DNA of 64,000 bases from Escherichia phage PP01 (NC_054930.1), one strand, 5' to 3'. Shown: positions 8,966 to 54,920, counted from the first letter of the stretch. Program-made: numbers and translations. The notes: generated by a model from the letters alone, not told the origin.

Positions 8966-9240
8966 TAAATTTTCCTCGCTAAATCGCGAATTTGACCTAC
9001 AGTATAATCTTGGATATAAACTTTATTAATGGGCTCATCAATAAATTTTGCCATAGATTCAATATCTTTTTGTATCTCTTCAAGACTGTATACTATCTTT
9101 AAAGCTTTTTCGCGAATAGTAACATTATCAGGTCCTGAATTTTCTTGAATGACAGCTTTAACATTTGCCATAAGAGATTTAAACTGATGCAAACTTAATT
9201 CAATCATTAATAACCGCCTTATAAAGATGGCTAATTTCAC
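8965..9240 (-). CDS. small hypothetical protein (dexA.1 position)
   Basis: 91-aa ORF; C-terminus paralogous to the next ORF. Confidence 0.45.
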   Translation of the reverse strand: MKLAIFIRRLLMIELSLHQFKSLMANVKAVIQENSGPDNVTIREKALKIVYSLEEIQKDIESMAKFIDEPINKVYIQDYTVGQIRDLARKI

Positions 9241-9445
9241 CTAAAACATAATCACTGATTGTAACAGTTTTCACTTCACCGCAAAAGAATTCTAATGCAA
9301 TCAAATCTCGTTCAATTTCTTCCAATTGAAGCATTAACTTGCCCGATTCAATTTTCACGTTTTTGCGATTTTTACTATAAGCTATTTCATAAATTTCGCT
9401 CACTTTATCTTGAAGCAGATAAAACTGGTCTTTAGTTATTTCCAC
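9200..9445 (-). CDS. small hypothetical protein (dexA.2 position)
   Basis: 81-aa ORF; paralogous to 8965-9240. Confidence 0.45.
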   Translation of the reverse strand: MEITKDQFYLLQDKVSEIYEIAYSKNRKNVKIESGKLMLQLEEIERDLIALEFFCGEVKTVTISDYVLGEISHLYKAVIND

Positions 9446-9466
9446 GAATAGCTTCCTCGAATTTAA

Positions 9467-10786
9467 TCATACGTAAAACACATCATAACGACCACGAGTG
9501 ACACCAACATAAAGAAGCTGCTGAGCTAGTTCAGCATCTGCATAATGAATACAAGGCGTATAGATAAAAGCACGGTCTACAGACATGCCCTGAGCTTTAT
9601 GGAATGTTGATGCGGGAAGTGCTTTCACTTTACTAAACTGTGATTTAGCATCCCAAAAATCGCTCCACGGAGCTTTTCCACCTTTATTCCAATTTTTATA
9701 AGTTTCTGCCGTTTTACCTAAAAATAAGTTAAACTTATACAACTCTTCATCAGATGAAATTATTTTAATCTTTTCACGATAATATTCATCATCGCCGTAA
9801 GTTTCTACTGTTAAATCCCAATGACGAATTAGATATTCTCCAGAAACACCACGAGCTTTAACAAATGTTGATGTATACTCTGCTTCTATAATACGAACTA
9901 ATTGTCCGTTATTAAAAATAATTTCTGACACAGGCTTTCCATCAATTTTATATGTTTTAATTAATGGTTCCTGCATTACAATAATTTCACCAACGATAAA
10001 ATCTTTATCAGTTTCAAAAATCTTTTTGCGAATAATGCTATTTAACTTGTCAACGGATTTATTCGTAAATGCCATTACACGATTTTCAAACAAATCATCT
10101 AGCGATTTGACGATTGAAAAATAATTTACCATAAAATCGCGTAAAGCGGTATCACCAGTAAATCCACGTACTCCATGCCCGTCAACAATTTTATCATAAA
10201 TCCACTTACCATTACGAACATCAGTAGCTACATCAATAATAGGAGCATTACTACGTTTAACTTCAGTGAGTTCACACTGATAAAAATCTTTGTGTGTAAA
10301 GAATGGACTGATATAAGCAGTGTTTTCTCCTGGGTCAACAGGTCTAATTTGCTTATTATCGCCTATTCCAATTATAGTACACCATGGCGGGATAGTTGAA
10401 AGCAAAATTTTAGATAGCTTTCTATCATACATTGACACTTCGTCGCAGATTAATACCCTGCATTTAGCCAAATCCGGTACTTCTTTTTGCTCAAAAAGAA
10501 CGTTTTCTTCGTATGTTACTGGGTTAATTTTAAGAATACTGTGAATAGTACTCGCTTCTTTCCCTGACAGTTTTGAAAGAATCTTTTTAGCTGCATGAGT
10601 AGGAGCTGCTAAAATAATGCCAGTTTCGCCTGTAGATATTAAGGCTTCAATGATGAACTTAGTAAGAGTAGTCTTACCAGTACCAGCAGGTCCATTAATA
10701 GTTACATGATGTTTCTTTTCTTTAATAGCCCTCATAACGATGTTAAAGGCATTTTTCTGGCCTTCTGTCAAATCATCAAATGTCAT
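9467..10786 (-). CDS. dda: Dda DNA helicase (SF1)
   Basis: 439 aa as in T4 Dda; Walker A GPAGTGKT, Walker B LICDEVSM. Confidence 0.9.
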   Translation of the reverse strand: MTFDDLTEGQKNAFNIVMRAIKEKKHHVTINGPAGTGKTTLTKFIIEALISTGETGIILAAPTHAAKKILSKLSGKEASTIHSILKINPVTYEENVLFEQKEVPDLAKCRVLICDEVSMYDRKLSKILLSTIPPWCTIIGIGDNKQIRPVDPGENTAYISPFFTHKDFYQCELTEVKRSNAPIIDVATDVRNGKWIYDKIVDGHGVRGFTGDTALRDFMVNYFSIVKSLDDLFENRVMAFTNKSVDKLNSIIRKKIFETDKDFIVGEIIVMQEPLIKTYKIDGKPVSEIIFNNGQLVRIIEAEYTSTFVKARGVSGEYLIRHWDLTVETYGDDEYYREKIKIISSDEELYKFNLFLGKTAETYKNWNKGGKAPWSDFWDAKSQFSKVKALPASTFHKAQGMSVDRAFIYTPCIHYADAELAQQLLYVGVTRGRYDVFYV

Positions 10787-46226: not shown

Positions 46227-46436
46227 TTAATTTCGCAATTTATTAAGTTCTTCATAATCAATCCAGGATTCTAATCCTGATGGCAAATCAGATTCAATTT
46301 CCCAAAGAAGCTCTTCAATTTTCTGAAGACGATCTAATTCTTCGGCAGGAATAGTAACCATTGACGGAGTTCTTGATACACTAATATCGTAAATCATATT
46401 TACCCCAGTTTGACCATGCAATCGCCATATTTCCAT
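46227..46436 (-). CDS. small hypothetical protein
   Basis: 69-aa ORF. Confidence 0.4.
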   Translation of the reverse strand: MEIWRLHGQTGVNMIYDISVSRTPSMVTIPAEELDRLQKIEELLWEIESDLPSGLESWIDYEELNKLRN

Positions 46437-46615
46437 TTAGAAATAGACTTTTCACCGTTAGAATAATAAACTTCGAGTTTAGCACGATTATTTTTAATTT
46501 GAATAACCTTTGCTGTCATCAAAGTTCCATACCCGTAATAAACTGCAACCTCATCACCTACATATACCGCGCTTCCGCGGTAGTCATGGATATAATCAGT
46601 TCCTTCGAGCATCAT
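46400..46615 (-). CDS. small hypothetical protein
   Basis: 71-aa ORF overlapping the nrdC stop. Confidence 0.4.
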   Translation of the reverse strand: MMLEGTDYIHDYRGSAVYVGDEVAVYYGYGTLMTAKVIQIKNNRAKLEVYYSNGEKSISKWKYGDCMVKLG

Positions 46616-46876: not shown

Positions 46877-47119
46877 TTATTCCTTAATTCCTAGTACTTG
46901 TTTAAAAGTCTCGTCGTAATCAAGACTTTGACCTGTTTGTTCTTTATGTTTGTATATAATATCACTTACTTCTGATAGCATATTTTTATATGAACGAGTT
47001 AAAGCAGATTTAAGCACGCTATATCTATCAGGAAATTTACCGTGTTCATTATAATACGCTATTGCTAATTCACGGACTGCCTTTTCAGCAGTCTCCATAT
47101 ATTCTTTACGCTTTGTCAT
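46877..47119 (-). CDS. small hypothetical protein (nrdC.1 position)
   Basis: 80-aa ORF. Confidence 0.45.
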
Positions 47120-47402
47120 TTTCTTCTCGGTTAAATCGGTGTTTGCAATGACGGCATTTATAACGAAGATTACTAGTCTGCCAATGAACTAATTGTACCT
47201 GTTCGGTACCACATTCAGGACAATTAGGAACGTTTTTAGAAGCCCTTTCGCGACGTTCAACCATAGCCATAATGGCATCCCAAGCTGGAGGTTTAAAATC
47301 TAAATCGTCAGTAACTAGCAGTCCTTTATCAAACCCAGCGCATGGAGTCCATTCAGGAAAATCTGAAGCTTCGGCAATATCTTCTAATAAACGCTTTTTC
47401 AT
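47106..47402 (-). CDS. zinc-ribbon protein
   Basis: 98 aa; CPECGTEQ...CRHCKH. Confidence 0.45.
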
Positions 47403-48325
47403 TTCAGTACCTCAATAGCATCACGTAAACCATTTGCTTTGGCGGTTAAAGCCTTAATAACTTTAGTATGCTCTTCAATCTGTTTTTCAACTTCAATCAA
47501 ACGAGCACTGAGATATTCGCGTTCTTCTTTCATAGTATCATTCCCATGATTAGGCTTTGGCGTAGGTTTAAATTTACTAGGGTCCTTTAACTTAATAACA
47601 ACTTTAGTTTCAAACAGTGAAAGACCATAATTCGTATTATCATCAAAGGATTCAACTACGTCCATTTTAGACAATAACGTGCGAAGATTATAAGTCAAAG
47701 AACGAATCGTTTTATTATGTTTATTAGCTTCACATGGTTTCATATATGGAAGATTTTTATATATTTCATGTGGAGCACAAACAATAATTGACAATTCAAA
47801 TGGTCCATTCTGTGATGATGGAATGAATTTAGCCGTAACCCAATCTTTTACATTTACATTAATAGTACGGTCATCGCCATGACAAAACAGTCTACGAGAA
47901 TGCTTAAAAAGCATATTCACATTATTATTAAATTCATGTGAAAACTCACTAGCAAATTTTTCTTTACTATTTTTAGAAAACCATTCTTCTAAATAAGTTC
48001 TTTTCACGTCATTAATAATATTAAATGTAACAACATTAGCATTTGATACATTAGTCTCAATGTAGCTTGGATACATAAATTTTTTAACATTATTAACAGC
48101 TATCACAGAAGATAGTAATCGGGAACGTTTGAACCACTCTAGCAAAGAACCAAGAGAATGTGAATACGCATTTTGTGTATCTTTACAAATATGGTTTTCC
48201 CATCCAATATAGTCTAAAAAATCACGAAGAATATTATTGATTACTGCTCTATGTCCTATCTGATAATTACGATGTTTAGTAATAAGACTGTCAAAATAAT
48301 CAATATAATGTTTACGAGTTTTCAT
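47399..48325 (-). CDS. hypothetical protein with C-terminal coiled coil
   Basis: 308-aa ORF; last about 40 aa heptad-like. Confidence 0.5.
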   Translation of the reverse strand: MKTRKHYIDYFDSLITKHRNYQIGHRAVINNILRDFLDYIGWENHICKDTQNAYSHSLGSLLEWFKRSRLLSSVIAVNNVKKFMYPSYIETNVSNANVVTFNIINDVKRTYLEEWFSKNSKEKFASEFSHEFNNNVNMLFKHSRRLFCHGDDRTINVNVKDWVTAKFIPSSQNGPFELSIIVCAPHEIYKNLPYMKPCEANKHNKTIRSLTYNLRTLLSKMDVVESFDDNTNYGLSLFETKVVIKLKDPSKFKPTPKPNHGNDTMKEEREYLSARLIEVEKQIEEHTKVIKALTAKANGLRDAIEVLK

Positions 48326-48377
48326 GTTCTTCTCACTTGGTTAATGATTTATACTCCGAGCCATCCTTGGCTTTAAA

Positions 48378-49379
48378 TTACTTAATTAACTGTAAAGCTT
48401 GTTCCAAACGATCAAGGCGATTAACAGATTCTTCCCAAATCCTTTTAGCCTTCTCATATTCTTTCTGCGCTTTATTAGAAATTTCTAGAACTTCTTTATA
48501 AGCTTTTTCTAGTGCAATAACTTCTGGACGAATTTCTATCGGTTCAGGCGAATCGTCAAGACATTCCATTAGTTCTTCAAGGGTAGTTTCTTCTTTAGGA
48601 GTATTCACAATTTCATCACATTTTTGTTGGTAAATTTCTTTATCAGTCGGTGAGTACGTACGTTTCACTTCACGAAGGCTAATTATAATTTTATATCCTT
48701 CCCAACCACACATATTTTTGAAAGGATATGTATGAATACTTTTTACGGTTTCCATACAGCCCAAAGCCGCCTCTAATTGATAAGTTATAGTGCTAGCAAT
48801 TGAGAAAAATTTATTAATATTCTTTTGGTTAGCGTTTGGTGTAAAAAATCCATAATTCACAAAAATAGCTACTTTATTTTTATCAAGCTCATATTCTTTT
48901 ACGATAATCATATCAGAAGCCAAAGGATGAATTTGACGATAATCGCCATAACATAATTTAGAAGCTGATTTTAGAATCTGTCCTTTGAAAAGCCTGAAAT
49001 TACTAATCCAACGACGAGTAAAAATATTCTCAGGGTCTTCTTTATTATTAAGATGATAAGAATTAACATCACCGAACCAATTATATCCTACTACATCTTT
49101 AGTTCGTTTAATTTCTTTCCCAAATTTACCAAGAATATCTCTGTTGACTAAGTATGAAAGAAGACGAGACCCTTTAAAGGTTTTCTTAATGTCATCTTTA
49201 TCTGTACGACTAGAAATTTCACGAACTTCGTGAATAAATCTGCTGGAAGAAACAATGCTTACATCAATATTATTGAGCCATTGATTGATAATAGAAAGAA
49301 CACTATTCTGACTAGACATAGGTTTAACTTTATCATCAATAACGCTATTGAATGATTTGATATATTCGTTACGAGTCAT
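48378..49379 (-). CDS. hypothetical protein with C-terminal coiled coil
   Basis: ORF track 48378-49430; start moved to Met 49379 (GAGGAG Shine-Dalgarno, downstream of promoter 49408-49437). Confidence 0.5.
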   Translation of the reverse strand: MTRNEYIKSFNSVIDDKVKPMSSQNSVLSIINQWLNNIDVSIVSSSRFIHEVREISSRTDKDDIKKTFKGSRLLSYLVNRDILGKFGKEIKRTKDVVGYNWFGDVNSYHLNNKEDPENIFTRRWISNFRLFKGQILKSASKLCYGDYRQIHPLASDMIIVKEYELDKNKVAIFVNYGFFTPNANQKNINKFFSIASTITYQLEAALGCMETVKSIHTYPFKNMCGWEGYKIIISLREVKRTYSPTDKEIYQQKCDEIVNTPKEETTLEELMECLDDSPEPIEIRPEVIALEKAYKEVLEISNKAQKEYEKAKRIWEESVNRLDRLEQALQLIK

Positions 49380-49407
49380 ATTAATCTCCTCAGTAGAAAG
49401 TAAGAAC

Positions 49408-49437
49408 ATTATACCACATCCTTGTGGCAAAGTAAAC
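49408..49437 (-). promoter_or_regulatory. early promoter
   Basis: GTTTAC, 18 bp, TATAAT with GTGG; near-identical to the 2429-2458 promoter. Confidence 0.6.
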
Positions 49438-50327
49438 TAGTTTAGTGCATTTAGTGCATTGTTCAGTTTAGAACGTTGCTTCGTGAGATTTTTGACTTTT
49501 TCTTGAGCTTTTTCTAGCATCTTTTCAGCTTCTAGCACTTCATTAGTTGCTTTAACGAGTTCATCATCTACTGCCTTGATAGACTTCTCAATCGCATCGG
49601 CATGCCATTTTTCAACAGGTTTAAGACTCGGATTTTCAACAGGAAGAAAATTCACTTTATTGAATTTCCATGCATCCTTATTACCTGAACTATACATCCA
49701 AAATTTAGGATCGTTTGATGAGTAATTGGATAAATTTAAATTTAAGTTATCTTGCACTTCTTGCTTTTTCTCTTGCGTGACTTCGTCCTTTCTCAAAAAT
49801 TCATATTTAAATGAAACGATCATATCAAGTTCATATGTTGTTGTGTCTAATTTAAATCGTTCGAAATGTTGTGAAATCTTAGACTGAACAGCAGCAACAA
49901 CATCCATATACTTAAATGCTTCTGTCAACTGCGATTTAAGACATTCGCAAATTGAAAGAGAATTTTTTGTATTAGGTTTAAAGCTAATTCGTGCAGTTCT
50001 GTTATTTTCTTTTAATGGTCTTACTTCCATCTGAAGAGTATAACCGTCAAATTTCAGGTTCTTTAAGTTAATGTCAGAACCTTTTAATCGACTAGCCGTC
50101 GACAAAATTTGCTTTAATTGTCTACGGAACAGAGCAATAAATCTCCATTCAATACGATAATGATTTGGATTGAAAAATCCAGATGATAAATCGACCTTAC
50201 TTTGACCAACGCCTTGAACAAATAGAGGATTTTTATAATCAATAGTTTTACAGAAATCGGTGAGTTGCTCACGAGCAGTCATTTGTGTAATATACCCCCG
50301 CTTTACTAAAATGACGTAACCATTCAC
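49437..50327 (-). CDS. hypothetical protein with C-terminal coiled coil
   Basis: 296-aa ORF. Confidence 0.5.
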   Translation of the reverse strand: MNGYVILVKRGYITQMTAREQLTDFCKTIDYKNPLFVQGVGQSKVDLSSGFFNPNHYRIEWRFIALFRRQLKQILSTASRLKGSDINLKNLKFDGYTLQMEVRPLKENNRTARISFKPNTKNSLSICECLKSQLTEAFKYMDVVAAVQSKISQHFERFKLDTTTYELDMIVSFKYEFLRKDEVTQEKKQEVQDNLNLNLSNYSSNDPKFWMYSSGNKDAWKFNKVNFLPVENPSLKPVEKWHADAIEKSIKAVDDELVKATNEVLEAEKMLEKAQEKVKNLTKQRSKLNNALNALN

Positions 50328-50463
50328 TGCTATTCATATATTTAAAGTGAATATCACGATTAACTTTATCAGGGTCTAAATTATTTTGGCACAAAAATGT
50401 CATAACATCACGAGTATAGCTGGCATTACGAACCATATCTTCAATTTGAGAACGAGTTTTCAT
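50269..50463 (-). CDS. small hypothetical protein
   Basis: 64-aa ORF. Confidence 0.4.
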   Translation of the reverse strand: MKTRSQIEDMVRNASYTRDVMTFLCQNNLDPDKVNRDIHFKYMNSSEWLRHFSKAGVYYTNDCS

Positions 50464-50471
50464 GGTGTTCC

Positions 50472-51305
50472 TTAAGATTTAAGTAAATCAACAATTTTAA
50501 TTAACTTTTCACGCTCAGATTTAGCTTTACTACTCAATCCAGATAGTCTGAAAATTTCATCGTCATATTGTTGAATAGAAATATTCAGCTCTTCAATCTG
50601 CTTATTAAAATAATCAATTTGTTCAGAATGTTTTTCGTTACTACGAACTGGTACAGGTTTTGTAGGCAATTTAGTTGAACTGGATTCATCCGGGCGATAA
50701 ATTAAAATACAACTTGAACCAATAGGGCATTTTGCACCAGATGAATATTCTAATGTTCCAGCTTCTTTTAAAACTTCAAAAGCTAAACAGAGATGATGCC
50801 CCATATTAACATAATCTGTAGAGTGAGCTCTGATGTAATAATCATCGCCACGAATACTAAATTTAAAGCATTTAAGGTCTTCTGTATTATTGGTCTTAAA
50901 AATCATTTGTTTATCTAGACCTTTAGCTAATCGAGCGCCTAATGCTAATAATCGGCGTTGATTTTCCCACAAATCCGCAATCATTTGATCGAATGATAAT
51001 TTTGGCATCAGTCGACCATAAAGGTCATATCCTTTATTATAATTACGAAGAATTTCACTCGCATTAATACGAGACAACGCTCCAATTTTATTAAGGGCTT
51101 TCATAATACGATTAGATAAACTCATTCCAGACCCGTTTGTTCGCTGTAAATGTTTTTCTAATCCAAATCCAATATCAACTTTAAACTTATCTAAAATTTC
51201 TGCATGAACATCTCTGTCGATAACATTCAAATCCAAAGTTGAGTTAAATCTATGAAAAAATTTATCTGGCTCTGCACTGCGAAATACAGTCCATTCATTC
51301 ATCAT
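50472..51305 (-). CDS. hypothetical protein with C-terminal coiled coil
   Basis: 277-aa ORF. Confidence 0.5.
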   Translation of the reverse strand: MMNEWTVFRSAEPDKFFHRFNSTLDLNVIDRDVHAEILDKFKVDIGFGLEKHLQRTNGSGMSLSNRIMKALNKIGALSRINASEILRNYNKGYDLYGRLMPKLSFDQMIADLWENQRRLLALGARLAKGLDKQMIFKTNNTEDLKCFKFSIRGDDYYIRAHSTDYVNMGHHLCLAFEVLKEAGTLEYSSGAKCPIGSSCILIYRPDESSSTKLPTKPVPVRSNEKHSEQIDYFNKQIEELNISIQQYDDEIFRLSGLSSKAKSEREKLIKIVDLLKS

Positions 51306-51368
51306 TTTTTATTAACTAAAGATTTAATTACTGCATTGACATTATTAATTACTACTGACATATTTTCC

Positions 51369-51776
51369 TCACTCAATTTCAATTTTACTAAATACACAGA
51401 ATATGATTGAACAGACTACATAAGCACCACACACAGATTGAACTAATACCATCCCAAAGAACCAAACAATATTATCAAACAATGTTTGTTTTACGTCGAA
51501 AGGACGTAAACTTACAGTAATATTATCACCTTTTTCTATTGAAGAATACATCTCTGGGGAAATATATTCACTAAATCTATAACCGTCTTTGAGTTCATAT
51601 ACGGCAATAAACGATAAACTAGACCCTTTTCCTTGTGTTCCTGTAATGGTATTAACTACAGTAACATCATAATCTTTATAATGCATATAATCATTAATTG
51701 CGTAATAACCGTATGCAACTACTACACATAAACAACATATCAATAAATTCAATCTTTTAATTATCAACTGTTTCAT
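51369..51776 (-). CDS. membrane protein
   Basis: 135 aa; N-terminal and C-terminal hydrophobic helices. Confidence 0.5.
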   Translation of the reverse strand: MKQLIIKRLNLLICCLCVVVAYGYYAINDYMHYKDYDVTVVNTITGTQGKGSSLSFIAVYELKDGYRFSEYISPEMYSSIEKGDNITVSLRPFDVKQTLFDNIVWFFGMVLVQSVCGAYVVCSIIFCVFSKIEIE

Positions 51777-51831
51777 AATAATCTCAATTAAAAGGGCTTA
51801 GAACCATTATACCATCCTTGGTATAAAGCGG

Positions 51832-52359
51832 TTATGCGAGTGCCGTCTTTAACCGTTCTTCAAACTTCCGAAGAGTATTTTGGCGTTCAGCTCTTTGCTT
51901 TTTGTAAGTTTCAATACGCTCTGAAATGAGAGTGTATCGTTCATTTACTGATTCTTTCATAAAATCAGGAATTTCACGAGAAGCTTTAATCTCGTCAAAT
52001 TTATCAATAACAGCTTGCTCTTCAGCAATTAAGTTATCATACATTAAAATATCTTTCTTGATGAACTCAATATCTTCTTGAGTTACACGAGATAATTTAG
52101 ATGCTTTATCCTTTTTGTACTGTTCGTTAGTATCACGAGACCAATGTAATGTACGATTTTTATTCGTATTCTTGTAAATTTCTACAATACCAATCTCATC
52201 AATAATAACGATCCAATTCCAGCGGGATTTGTAAATTTGTCCTCCATCAACAGCGATTTCACCTCCGATTGAGATGTCGTTAAAGAACTTGCTTTGTGCT
52301 TCAGATTTAAATTTACCATCGTTGTAATTTACTAAGTTGAAAATATCTTTAGCGTTCAT
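51832..52359 (-). CDS. hypothetical protein with C-terminal coiled coil
   Basis: 175-aa ORF downstream of promoter 52378-52407. Confidence 0.5.
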   Translation of the reverse strand: MNAKDIFNLVNYNDGKFKSEAQSKFFNDISIGGEIAVDGGQIYKSRWNWIVIIDEIGIVEIYKNTNKNRTLHWSRDTNEQYKKDKASKLSRVTQEDIEFIKKDILMYDNLIAEEQAVIDKFDEIKASREIPDFMKESVNERYTLISERIETYKKQRAERQNTLRKFEERLKTALA

Positions 52360-52823: not shown

Positions 52824-53792
52824 TTATTTCAGAAGAGTAACCTCAGCAATTTCTTCCCAACCGTTTTTGTCGGTCATAATAAAGTCAGCAAGATAAAGAG
52901 CAGTACGCAGTGAAACATTGCGTAAACGATTAACATTAACTTTCATCCATGATAATGCTTTATAAGTTTCTTCATCAGAAAGACCGCGCTTTTGCATCAT
53001 GTCAGTTGAAAGAATAACATCTTCAACCCTGACCATAATTTCTTCATTAGTGTGAACACCCAAATCTAAATAAACCGAGCGGGACACTAATGCTTGTAAG
53101 TGTGGAGCAAGTTTAGTACCACGGTCTAATTCGCGGTCAATGTCAACGTTTGTGATAAAAACAATCGTTCCTTTAAATTCAAACTCACGGTCAATGCCTT
53201 TTTCTTCTAAGTAAGAAGATGCAGTGCTCCAGCAGACTTTACGGGTCTCTCCAGTGTCCAGAGCGGCTTTTAGAAGATTAAGAATGTCCATATCAGAGAA
53301 AACATCCACATCATCAATCAAAAGGACAGAATTCTCTTCACGATTATTCCAAAGCTGCTCATAAAGACCAATACCAGAGATTTTACCATTAATGCTTTTA
53401 TATTCAATGTATCCGTTATCATTTGCTTTATTTAAAGCTTTATCTAAAGAATACGTTTTACCAATACCTGCTGCGCCAGAGATAATTAATGAACGAATAT
53501 TTCCATTAATAATACCATTCGTCATCATTCCCATAACATTAAATCTTTTATTAATGCGGGTTTTCATATCTTCATACGATTCTTTAACTTCTTCAACTTT
53601 TACACCATCATATGAAATATCTGATTTGTAAACCCAAACACCGCGACGTTTACCGTCAATTTCAACAAAAACTTTACCATCTCCTTGTGCATCTACCGGA
53701 GCATTATCTGGGAACCATTCGCCTAAGAGCTCAAAAGTTCCAGAGATTTCTTTACCGAAGTAGATACCCTTATTGATAGTTACAGTTTTCAT
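52824..53792 (-). CDS. P-loop NTPase (AAA-like)
   Basis: ORF track 52824-53804 (MENKM); Walker A GAAGIGKTYS, Walker B VLLIDDVD. Confidence 0.6.
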   Translation of the reverse strand: MKTVTINKGIYFGKEISGTFELLGEWFPDNAPVDAQGDGKVFVEIDGKRRGVWVYKSDISYDGVKVEEVKESYEDMKTRINKRFNVMGMMTNGIINGNIRSLIISGAAGIGKTYSLDKALNKANDNGYIEYKSINGKISGIGLYEQLWNNREENSVLLIDDVDVFSDMDILNLLKAALDTGETRKVCWSTASSYLEEKGIDREFEFKGTIVFITNVDIDRELDRGTKLAPHLQALVSRSVYLDLGVHTNEEIMVRVEDVILSTDMMQKRGLSDEETYKALSWMKVNVNRLRNVSLRTALYLADFIMTDKNGWEEIAEVTLLK

Positions 53793-53826
53793 TTTATTCT
53801 CCAAATCTGTATCAGTTGATAGTTGT

Positions 53827-53880: not shown

Positions 53881-53903
53881 AAAAAGGGAGCCCGAAGGCT
53901 CCC
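53881..53903 (-). terminator. rho-independent terminator
   Basis: GGGAGCC-CGAA-GGCTCCC stem followed by TTTTT on the minus strand. Confidence 0.7.
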
Positions 53904-53906
53904 TTA

Positions 53907-54920
53907 TCATTTATAATAACTTCGGTGGTTTTCAAGATAAACCCTCTCAAGGAAGTCATCCCAGAAACTCATGTCTACTTTTTGCTGCATACCGTTCTTA
54001 GAAGCTTCAATGGATGCTGCTTCTACTTGATCGACCACATCTTCCAAAAACTCTTGAACAGTTTTAAATGGATGCTTACCCAACTTCACGTCGAGAATAA
54101 ATGAAGCATCTTGGAGTGGATAAACCAAGTCACCAGTTTTGTAAATTTCCAATAGTTGGAGTCCACCACGACAAGCATGGCTCAAAGCTTTCCAGTCAAT
54201 GCCCTCATTCGCTTCAGCTTTACGAGCGCGTTCACCGTATTCGGCATCAAGTTTATTCAATGACTGCTTGAGCTCTGTAATTGATAACGTTGTTTGGTAC
54301 TTACGTCCAAGAACAGTATAGAACGTTTGCGGGCCTGTTTTCTCATGATTATGGAACACCCATTCACAGAACTCGTTTTCAGGGAGTCTGTGTTTGATAT
54401 CTTCTACTTTAGTACGACGAAGTCTATCAGGGATTCCTTCTTGATAATCAACCCACTGGTCAGGGATTTGATTAACTACTTTCAATACATCACGTAATGC
54501 GGCCAAACGAGAACCCTTGACACCGTATTTAGAAGCTTGCTTGCGGACATATCCTAAATAGGATTTCATGTTAGTTGTATAAAACCGTGAACGATTGTCT
54601 TGGATAAATTTCCATACATCAGGCAAATCAGATTTAACCACTAGTTCAGGCGGAGTGTGAAGCATATCCAATGCTACAGTTTCACCATCTGCTGCTAATT
54701 TAAAGAAATACTTAAGACTGTATAGTTCATGGTCAATATCATCTTTAGTGTTTTTAGATGATGTGTTGTTAGTGTTTTTACTCATATGCTCTTTAACATT
54801 TCCGATAAGAATATCGCGAGCACGAGGAACAAAGATTTCTTTAAAATCTACATCAGATTCTGGAGTAGAAGTTCCATAAAGATGACTACCAAAATAGCTT
54901 TTCATTACTGTTTTCATCAT
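53907..54920 (-). CDS. nucleotidyltransferase-fold protein (Pol-beta superfamily)
   Basis: 337 aa; N-terminal GS-x9-DVD motif (GSHLYGTSTPESDVDF) typical of minimal NTases. Confidence 0.55.
   Translation of the reverse strand: MMKTVMKSYFGSHLYGTSTPESDVDFKEIFVPRARDILIGNVKEHMSKNTNNTSSKNTKDDIDHELYSLKYFFKLAADGETVALDMLHTPPELVVKSDLPDVWKFIQDNRSRFYTTNMKSYLGYVRKQASKYGVKGSRLAALRDVLKVVNQIPDQWVDYQEGIPDRLRRTKVEDIKHRLPENEFCEWVFHNHEKTGPQTFYTVLGRKYQTTLSITELKQSLNKLDAEYGERARKAEANEGIDWKALSHACRGGLQLLEIYKTGDLVYPLQDASFILDVKLGKHPFKTVQEFLEDVVDQVEAASIEASKNGMQQKVDMSFWDDFLERVYLENHRSYYK

Follow-up and report, generated by a model that had tools for sequence, protein, structure and literature searches.

Diverged nrdC.x Paralogs With C-Terminal Heptad Tails as a Putative Anti-Immunity Gene Array in a T4-Like Phage Genome

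INTRODUCTION

Five neighboring open reading frames (ORFs) in the genome of Escherichia phage PP01 (NC_054930.1), located at 47399–52359 of the 64,000-nucleotide stretch analyzed here (the window), encode proteins that end in amphipathic heptad-like tails, which raises the question whether they are unrelated heads provided with a common module, as a first-pass annotation of this DNA had claimed, or proteins that inherited their tails from a common ancestor. The evidence presented below favors the latter for most of them: the locus is best described as a tandem array of four diverged paralogs, so far found only in Straboviridae, plus the product of nrdC.8, and each of these proteins probably neutralizes a different host immune system. 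The block would thus be a partly known anti-immunity gene cluster and not a collection of unrelated heads with a swapped-in tail.

The 4.96-kb block shares 98% identity with Shigella phage vb_GEC_SH_GT (hereafter GT) and 90–99% with hundreds of Tequatrovirus genomes, and by this sequence match the window is a genome of the Tequatrovirus (T4-like) type. Comparison with the T4 reference annotation identified the five ORFs as orthologs of nrdC.3, nrdC.4, nrdC.5, nrdC.6, and nrdC.8 (C3, C4, C5, C6, and C8 when families or profiles are meant), all encoded on the minus strand. Between nrdC.6 and nrdC.8 lies nrdC.7, which is predicted to encode a membrane protein, and the accessory arm holding the block runs from endonuclease VII to nrdC.11. 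The ORF coordinates of the first-pass annotation were confirmed, although two boundaries need correction, as 49437–50327 covers the 3′ part of nrdC.5 only and 50472–51305 lacks the native start of nrdC.6. It was also right that the T4 record labels these genes as hypotheticals only, but the literature has since gone further.

FOUR OF THE FIVE PROTEINS AS PROBABLE DIVERGED PARALOGS

Profiles built from the collected homologs and from four further genera were compared by hhalign. The products of nrdC.3 (47399–48325, minus strand; 308 aa, 96% identity to T4 nrdC.3) and nrdC.4 (48378–49379, minus strand; 333 aa, 90% identity to T4 nrdC.4) both match phrog_1435 from end to end, with E 1.6e-100 for nrdC.3 (residues 2–308 vs profile 1–334) and E 4e-165 for nrdC.4. 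Their bodies align by blastp, with E values down to 4e-6 between genera (AY_d337 vs T4 nrdC.3), and the C3 and C4 profiles are linked over the bodies (residues 1–219 vs 2–231) at 97.9% (E 4e-13). The third member is nrdC.5, which is split in the window into a 3′ piece (49437–50327) and a 64-aa 5′ piece severed by a frameshift (50269–50463), both on the minus strand. Its profile aligns with C3 at 90.6% (E 1e-6) and with C4 at 85% (E 6e-6), and both alignments cover body and tail. The two pieces match consecutive parts of the Pfam family DUF7235 (PF23882), whose gathering threshold is 30 bits: the 3′ piece from 54 to 307 (344.9 bits, E 6e-103) and the 5′ piece from 1 to 58 (56.5 bits, E 4e-15); the latter also matches phrog_2351 from 1 to 56.

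The product of nrdC.6 (50472–51305, minus strand; a 277-aa ORF from an internal ATG that matches phrog_2257 with E 1e-142) appears as the fourth paralog, with a compact version of the fold, and here the positive evidence comes from predicted structures. In reciprocal Foldseek comparisons, the nrdC.4 model matched an nrdC.6 homolog (that of phage Sf25) in BFVD with probability 1.00, and the nrdC.4 and nrdC.6 models shared seven BFVD matches at the same probability, in phages IME523, PM2, fHyAci03, Mineola, Acj61, Acj9, and fHe-Yen9-01, the hosts of which belong to Enterobacter, Pectobacterium, Acinetobacter, Klebsiella, and Yersinia. The order of the secondary-structure elements is identical in both models. 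A further bridge is provided by a 332-aa homolog from Karamvirus (KaAlpha), which links to the C6 profile (hhalign 89%, E 2e-6), while the BFVD counterpart of this type of protein matches the nrdC.4 model (E 5e-8).

In contrast, the product of nrdC.8 (51832–52359, minus strand), with 175 aa compared to the 277–341 aa of the others, is a small protein unrelated to them, its helical heptad tail being its own, and hhalign gave less than 1% against all four paralog families.

Altogether, profile comparison indicates that the bodies of nrdC.3, nrdC.4, and nrdC.5 are homologous, and the models argue that nrdC.6 shares the fold of nrdC.4, so that these four would be very old and heavily diverged paralogs of a single superfamily. 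The initial view of five dissimilar bodies cannot be maintained, given the common phrog_1435 assignment, the hhalign values of 85–98% among nrdC.3, nrdC.4, and nrdC.5, and the fold of nrdC.6; it holds for nrdC.8 alone.

Existing databases do not contain this grouping. PF26897 (nrdC.4 type), PF26899 (nrdC.6 type), and PHROGs 1435, 2351, 2257, and 2274 are sequence families of individual proteins that are held apart with their function unassigned, the sole exception being phrog_1435, in which nrdC.3 and nrdC.4 are merged. Neither Pfam nor PHROGs encodes the superfamily proposed here, which unites C3, C4, C5, and C6 with the distant Straboviridae relatives described below. Searches of Pfam, NCBIfam, PADLOC, and PDB sequences detected no informative family beyond domains of unknown function, and the tails gave only sub-threshold matches to coiled-coil segments of unrelated proteins. 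An exhaustive HMMER profile search with nrdC.4 and nrdC.3 retrieved 9 cluster representatives among 1.84 billion and no bridge to nrdC.5 or nrdC.6, and with full-length hidden Markov models (HMMs) the rest of the window yielded no additional paralogs.

THE C-TERMINAL HEPTAD TAILS

The tails were evaluated with a home-made heptad scorer that examines every 28-residue segment in all seven registers, rewards hydrophobic residues at a and d and polar residues elsewhere, and penalizes Pro and Gly; the background consisted of all 74 ATG-initiated ORFs of at least 100 aa in the window. By best segment the five ORFs rank 2, 4, 5, 6, and 9 of 74, and in all five that segment lies at the extreme C-terminus. 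Ranked by the score of the last 40 residues they occupy positions 1, 2, 3, 4, and 6. The highest scorer overall is a 560-aa ORF at the position of T4 gp46 (Rad50-like), which, if it is indeed gp46, would serve as a suitable positive control; ORFs adjoining annotated gp47 or recombination-endonuclease genes in other phages likewise score high.

Over at least 28 residues the tails show heptad periodicity above background, without Pro and nearly without Gly. Those of nrdC.3 (45 aa, 47402–47536, score 11.3, preceded by the Pro-rich linker KPTPKPNHGND), nrdC.4 (48 aa, 48381–48524), nrdC.5 (45 aa, 49440–49574, which includes the example given in the first-pass annotation), and nrdC.8 (45 aa, 51835–51969, score 11.4), all on the minus strand, exceeded their own shuffled versions with p values of 0.0045, 0.025, 0.0035, and 0.003, respectively, the nrdC.5 tail having the top C-terminal score in the window (12.7). 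The nrdC.6 tail, a two-segment helix of 54 aa (50475–50636, minus strand), is kinked and reached p 0.14. In each case the last 35 residues keep to one register, with the a/d positions occupied by LVIHILALIL (C3), SAYAWSLLLI (C4), VALAVLRLLL (C5), IYILSARLVL (C6), and YIIYRRLFLA (C8).

Monomer AlphaFold2 models cover nrdC.4 and nrdC.6. In the former (predicted local distance difference test score, pLDDT, 84), a helical N-terminal domain (3–84) is followed by an alpha/beta domain (88–235), a low-confidence linker (about 250–284), and a single 48-residue helix (285–332) that corresponds to the tail. In the latter (pLDDT 74), a disordered linker leads to helices 224–253 and 259–276, parted by an LSGL kink, and the tail contains the invariant motif DDEIFRL (D248, D249, E250, I251, F252, R253, and L254). 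Pro-rich linkers precede the tails in C3 to C6. C-terminal amphipathic helices with heptad character are real in all five proteins, as originally noticed, given the ranks of the last 40 residues and the helices in both models.

Is the tail a portable module? When the tails were compared with each other against composition-preserving shuffles, significant similarity was obtained only within C3, C4, and C5: the nrdC.5 tail resembles that of nrdC.3 (z 5.3–5.8) and that of nrdC.4 (z 4.5) beyond composition, and the remaining value was 2.8. These three share their heptad register counted from the C-terminus, and a tail-only HMM built from them, run against all six-frame ORFs of the window, found those three alone; it missed the C6 and C8 tails, the HMMs of which detected only themselves. 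Significance and detection being limited to C3, C4, and C5, the shared tail would have been inherited with the body inside the paralog family. A tail module common to all five was rejected, as both single-sequence comparisons and tail-only HMMs leave the C6 and C8 tails unlinked to the others. The nrdC.8 tail is like the others only in its generic heptad character. The assertion of a shared tail therefore stands beyond composition for C3, C4, and C5 (z up to 5.8) and fails for C6 and C8.

In a natural hybrid of 299 aa (P0225), the central part of nrdC.5 continues, at a short NKVN/NNVN match, into the C-terminal half of nrdC.3. This arrangement implies the deletion of nrdC.4 and indicates that recombination between these genes does occur.

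DISTRIBUTION AND EVOLUTION

The nrdC neighborhoods of six distant T4-like genera were retrieved. Five of them (Moonvirus, Jiaodavirus, Karamvirus, Gelderlandvirus, and an Acinetobacter phage) carry near nrdC one gene of about 325–335 aa with a strong heptad signal close to the C-terminus, while in Krischvirus GEC-3S no member was found near nrdC. Besides the Karamvirus protein, hhalign related VMC04 to C4 (51%, bodies) and AbTZA1 (55%, bodies), Merlin (44%), and Melville (38%) to C5. Genes of about 260–285 aa located beside the distant relatives in Merlin, VMC04, KaAlpha, and Melville were rejected as members of the family since they have no tail and no profile match. Within the T4 group the copy number amounts to four in Tequatrovirus, three in Mosigvirus (nrdC.3, nrdC.5, and nrdC.6), and three each in Dhakavirus and Gaprivervirus (nrdC.4, nrdC.5, and nrdC.6). 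As the single-copy relatives of five distant Straboviridae genera carry the tail, this architecture looks ancestral and would have been expanded in the T4 group. The modular tail on unrelated heads that had been envisaged for this block is not borne out, four of the five proteins appearing to be paralogs with an ancestral-looking tail and the nrdC.8 tail being generic.

Across genera, the tails are generally better conserved than the bodies. Identity to the Mosigvirus ortholog is 67% in the tail vs 53% in the body for C3; the corresponding ranges are 64–80% vs 39–48% for C4 and, in all five comparisons involving Tequatrovirus or Mosigvirus, 58–70% vs 20–37% for C6. Tail and body differ little in C8, and conservation is poor in either part of C5. 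Purifying selection acts on every gene within Tequatrovirus, as judged from the ratios of nonsynonymous to synonymous substitution rates (dN/dS); nrdC.3 and nrdC.4 have the highest values of the arm (0.18–0.33 in all pairs but one), and endoVII, nrdC, nrdC.1, nrdC.2, nrdC.10, and nrdC.11 have values of 0.09 or less. Substitutions within this genus were too few for a useful contrast of dN between body and tail.

Several individual alleles deserve mention. The nrdC.3 gene of Bas37 (8971–9900) is very divergent from that of the window at 47399–48325 (dN 0.27, dS 0.81), the flanking genes being more than 90% identical, which looks like local mosaicism at that paralog. Within the nrdC.6 protein of Shigella phage Sf25 (P0064, 378 aa), a stretch of about 100 residues (IRAHSTDY...QIEEL) is duplicated in tandem. 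Half-length versions of nrdC.4 appeared among the BFVD matches, A0A482N302 from phage G8 (158 aa) and A0A2Z5WKJ2 from phage T2 (155 aa), with 88–90% identity, suggesting that the genes of T2 and G8 are truncated or split. Judged by its variable copy number and by the frameshifts, the hybrid, the duplication, and the truncated versions seen in different phages, the block consists of accessory, high-turnover genes.

ANTI-DEFENSE FUNCTIONS IN THE BLOCK AND ITS SURROUNDINGS

The dsr1 gene of ECOR17 blocks an evolved deletion clone of T4, which plates again when T4 nrdC.5 is supplied on a plasmid (Srikant et al., 2022, eLife, PMC9391042). The two pieces in the window, 50269–50463 plus 49437–50327, represent the ortholog of this Dsr1 antagonist (DUF7235/PF23882), with 94% identity after removal of one G, and nrdC.3 and nrdC.4 are its remote paralogs (hhalign 85–91%); the T4 gene is intact, whereas that of the window is split by a frameshift, and plating rescue is known for the T4 allele only. 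The same article reports nothing on the structure, tail, or paralogs of NrdC.5.

The second functional anchor is nrdC.8. The Bas37 protein bas37_0203 inhibits Druantia III according to a 2025 preprint (10.1101/2025.11.20.689424), in which the gene is not called nrdC.8 and no known domains or structural relatives are reported. The window protein is identical to it at 172/175 positions (3 substitutions), and bas37_0203 lies between the nrdC.7 and nrdC.9 orthologs of Bas37, the very position of nrdC.8, so that the two are orthologs at equal locus positions; the activity is known for the Bas37 variant.

Neighboring genes show the same tendency: gp49.2 of T6, a few genes away, inhibits OLD (PMC13096335), and nrdC.1 acts against Septu. 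The presence of antagonists of Dsr1, Druantia III, and OLD defines the arm as an anti-defense island, and in this context the paralogs of NrdC.5 are likely further inhibitors. The literature searched mentions neither nrdC.3 nor nrdC.6, nor does it treat these genes as a family. The suggestion of an inhibitor family made from the sequence alone thus gains support from T4 nrdC.5 against Dsr1, the Bas37 ortholog of nrdC.8 against Druantia III, and the neighbors gp49.2 and nrdC.1.

Some known systems are useful for comparison. DSAD1, a phage inhibitor of DSR2 (PMC10981675, PMC11087589), offers an analogy in that a phage protein opposes a sirtuin-type NADase defense; DSAD1 acts on DSR2, while Dsr1 detects the major capsid protein by a different sensor, of the tetratricopeptide repeat (TPR) type (PMC12803255); the likeness to NrdC.5 would be functional, and no homology is expected. 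T4 has a precedent for a shared terminal element on diversified anti-defense bodies, but that element is N-terminal and short, in contrast to the long C-terminal helix inherited within the NrdC.3–6 family, for which nothing suggests capsid targeting. Phage tail-terminator or tail-completion proteins (lambda gpU fold) are also listed among the closest known systems for comparison with NrdC.3–6.

FRAMESHIFTS IN nrdC.5 AND nrdC.6

Two of the paralogs are disrupted in the window. nrdC.5 is split near codon 56 by one additional nucleotide in a G-run (50295–50299, five C on the plus strand and five G in the gene), where the window reads GCGGGGGT and both T4 and GT read GC-AGGGT. Consequently, the window gene lacks the intact frame of the 340-aa T4 NrdC.5, and the likely product of the 3′ piece is a protein of 281 aa from an internal ATG at 50282; removal of one G yields a protein of 341 aa with the T4 identity given above. 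The change was found in 0/318 phage records, the best matches (98.9%) differing by one gap, and it reflects either an error of sequencing or a loss-of-function mutation private to this phage.

In nrdC.6, the native start proximal to the ribosome-binding site was lost through a change from A7 to A6 (A-run at about 51306–51311), as revealed by comparison with GT, with T4 DNA, and with the 296-aa relative P0065. The severed start persists as a 19-codon mini-ORF, MSVVINNVNAVIKSLVNKK (51302–51361, minus strand), which ends in an ATGA stop/start overlap, and the relatives have 296 aa vs the 277 aa of the window ORF. Both indels are the only uncompensated, frame-disrupting coding indels in about 11.5 kb relative to the closest relative; they are either assembly errors or the mark of a phage with damaged versions of both genes. 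If real, they predict that the phage is sensitive to Dsr1-carrying hosts.

The T4 reference itself (NC_000866) has a 1-nt deletion in nrdC.6 (9067–9894; GAGCTG-ATATTT), so that the conserved tail is missing from its annotated protein, which ends in unrelated sequence instead; a single uninterrupted match to the full-length nrdC.6 query was obtained with a second T4 record (OL964735).

MECHANISM AND ALTERNATIVE EXPLANATIONS

Each paralog is predicted to consist of an N-terminal helical domain, an alpha/beta domain, a flexible Pro-rich linker, and a C-terminal amphipathic heptad helix of 35–50 residues. The fast-diverging globular head would bind the immune protein, and the better-conserved tail would form a coiled coil that assembles the inhibitor into dimers or trimers, the flexibly linked heads of which could bind oligomeric defense complexes with avidity. 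Alternatively, the tail itself may be a conserved docking element.

Several observations weigh against this proposal. At the sequence level C6 is poorly linked (hhalign 13.6% to C3 and 8% to C5), the HMMER profile does not reach C6, and the TM-scores behind the structural link, obtained with predicted structures, are only 0.37–0.47. The links of the distant relatives mostly have probabilities of 38–55%. dN/dS is below 1 everywhere, and therefore no direct signature of positive selection was seen. The anti-defense role of nrdC.3, nrdC.4, and nrdC.6 is deduced from homology and context, the experiments concerning other genes, and oligomerization of the tails is a prediction that draws on heptad scores from a home-made scorer. 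Finally, the nrdC.6 tail is conserved on all helix faces (0.69 at a/d vs 0.67 at other positions), which, together with its kink, is more readily explained by a surface for specific binding than by an ordinary coiled coil.

The last point leads to a different role for the tails: without self-associating, they would serve as conserved docking helices, either contacting a shared partner of host or phage origin or folding back against the head, while the heads diversify. The better conservation of tails than heads, the kinked nrdC.6 tail with its invariant DDEIFRL and all-face conservation, and the fact that sub-threshold tail matches lead only to generic coiled-coil segments, which is no proof of self-association, are consistent with it. 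Still, it seems rather unlikely: hydrophobic residues prevail at a and d through five heptads, and in C3, C4, and C5 these positions are conserved slightly better than the rest; the models place the helix detached behind a disordered linker; and the tails of different paralog families are so dissimilar in sequence that a single partner for all becomes less plausible. The recombination of a portable coiled-coil tail onto unrelated effector heads, the original idea for this block, must be considered very improbable. nrdC.8 does pair an unrelated body with an analogous tail and P0225 does record recombination between nrdC.5 and nrdC.3, but this hybrid joins two paralogs and not unrelated heads, the bodies of nrdC.3, nrdC.4, and nrdC.5 are homologous and that of nrdC.6 appears to share their fold, the tail is already present in single-copy distant relatives, and tail-only profiles do not join C6 or C8 to the other three.

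It could also be argued that nrdC.5 and nrdC.8 alone are anti-defense genes and that the other paralogs are duplicates in decay or act early for another purpose, such as takeover of the host or the metabolism of nucleotides or DNA. Functional data exist for those two only; all are dispensable in the laboratory, the nrdC region being deletable in evolved T4 (PMC9391042), and disruptions are frequent (the nrdC.6 tail of the T4 reference, nrdC.5 and nrdC.6 of the window, the nrdC.4 fragments of T2 and G8). Against this explanation, which is judged unlikely, stand the purifying selection on all of them (dN/dS 0.07–0.33), their retention across four genera with conserved tails, the at least four proven anti-defense genes around them, and the lack of any match to an enzyme or nucleic-acid-binding family in Pfam, NCBIfam, PADLOC, and PDB sequences. 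A more speculative proposal, to which very little probability is assigned, is that the alpha/beta head is a derived copy of a phage tail-terminator-type fold and that the proteins act as early multivalent decoys, linked by coiled coils, with every paralog adapted to a sensor of its own among the TPR sensors of the Avs or Dsr type; they would occupy fold-recognizing immune sensors before the real late structural proteins appear. The recognition of such folds by bacterial sensors, and of the major capsid protein by Dsr1, suggested this idea. For NrdC.5 this idea is weakened by the report that Dsr1 senses the major capsid protein via its TPR-type sensor (PMC12803255) and not the tail terminator.

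OTHER FEATURES OF THE nrdC ARM

In many GenBank records the nrdC.x genes carry the label “thioredoxin,” and nrdC.8 was described as a nucleotide reductase in a paper on DRT1 (PMC13275509). None of the proteins has a thioredoxin or reductase match; the former label is wrong and reflects name propagation, and the latter is a naming artifact.

Next to the block, nrdC.2 (47106–47402) encodes a CPEC...17 residues...CRHC pattern resembling a small zinc ribbon. Between gene 49.2 and nrdC (46227–46615), the window and GT have two small ORFs (69 and 71 aa), one of them labeled “antitoxin” in GT, at the place where T4 has gene 49.3. On the other side, the ORFs of nrdC.10 and nrdC.11 lie at 52824–53804 and 53907–54920, and size-matched ORFs are annotated at these positions in most other T4-like genera examined. 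The nrdC.10 product gave weak, sub-threshold Pfam matches to an AAA/STAND-type NTPase, and that of nrdC.11 matches the RlaP nucleotidyltransferase family (43 bits, cut-off 23). The two genes are separated by a perfect 9-bp GC-rich hairpin at 53884–53905 (AAGGGAGCC-CGAA-GGCTCCCTT) that has a terminator score on both strands and is flanked by two 1-nt indels relative to its relatives. In a promoter and terminator scan, counts were not above those of shuffled sequences, and the sites upstream of nrdC.4, nrdC.8, and nrdC.10 carry no weight.

CONCLUDING REMARKS

Specific immune systems have already been assigned to two genes of the block, which leaves three orphans, nrdC.3, nrdC.4, and nrdC.6. Should these three be distant paralogs of NrdC.5, the antagonist of Dsr1, they would be leading candidates for inhibitors of other defense systems. 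The superfamily would also provide a family-level handle on relatives in the phages of Klebsiella, Acinetobacter, Citrobacter, and Salmonella that are used in therapy, and the combination of a conserved tail with a flexible linker suggests a common design principle, that of multivalent inhibitors.

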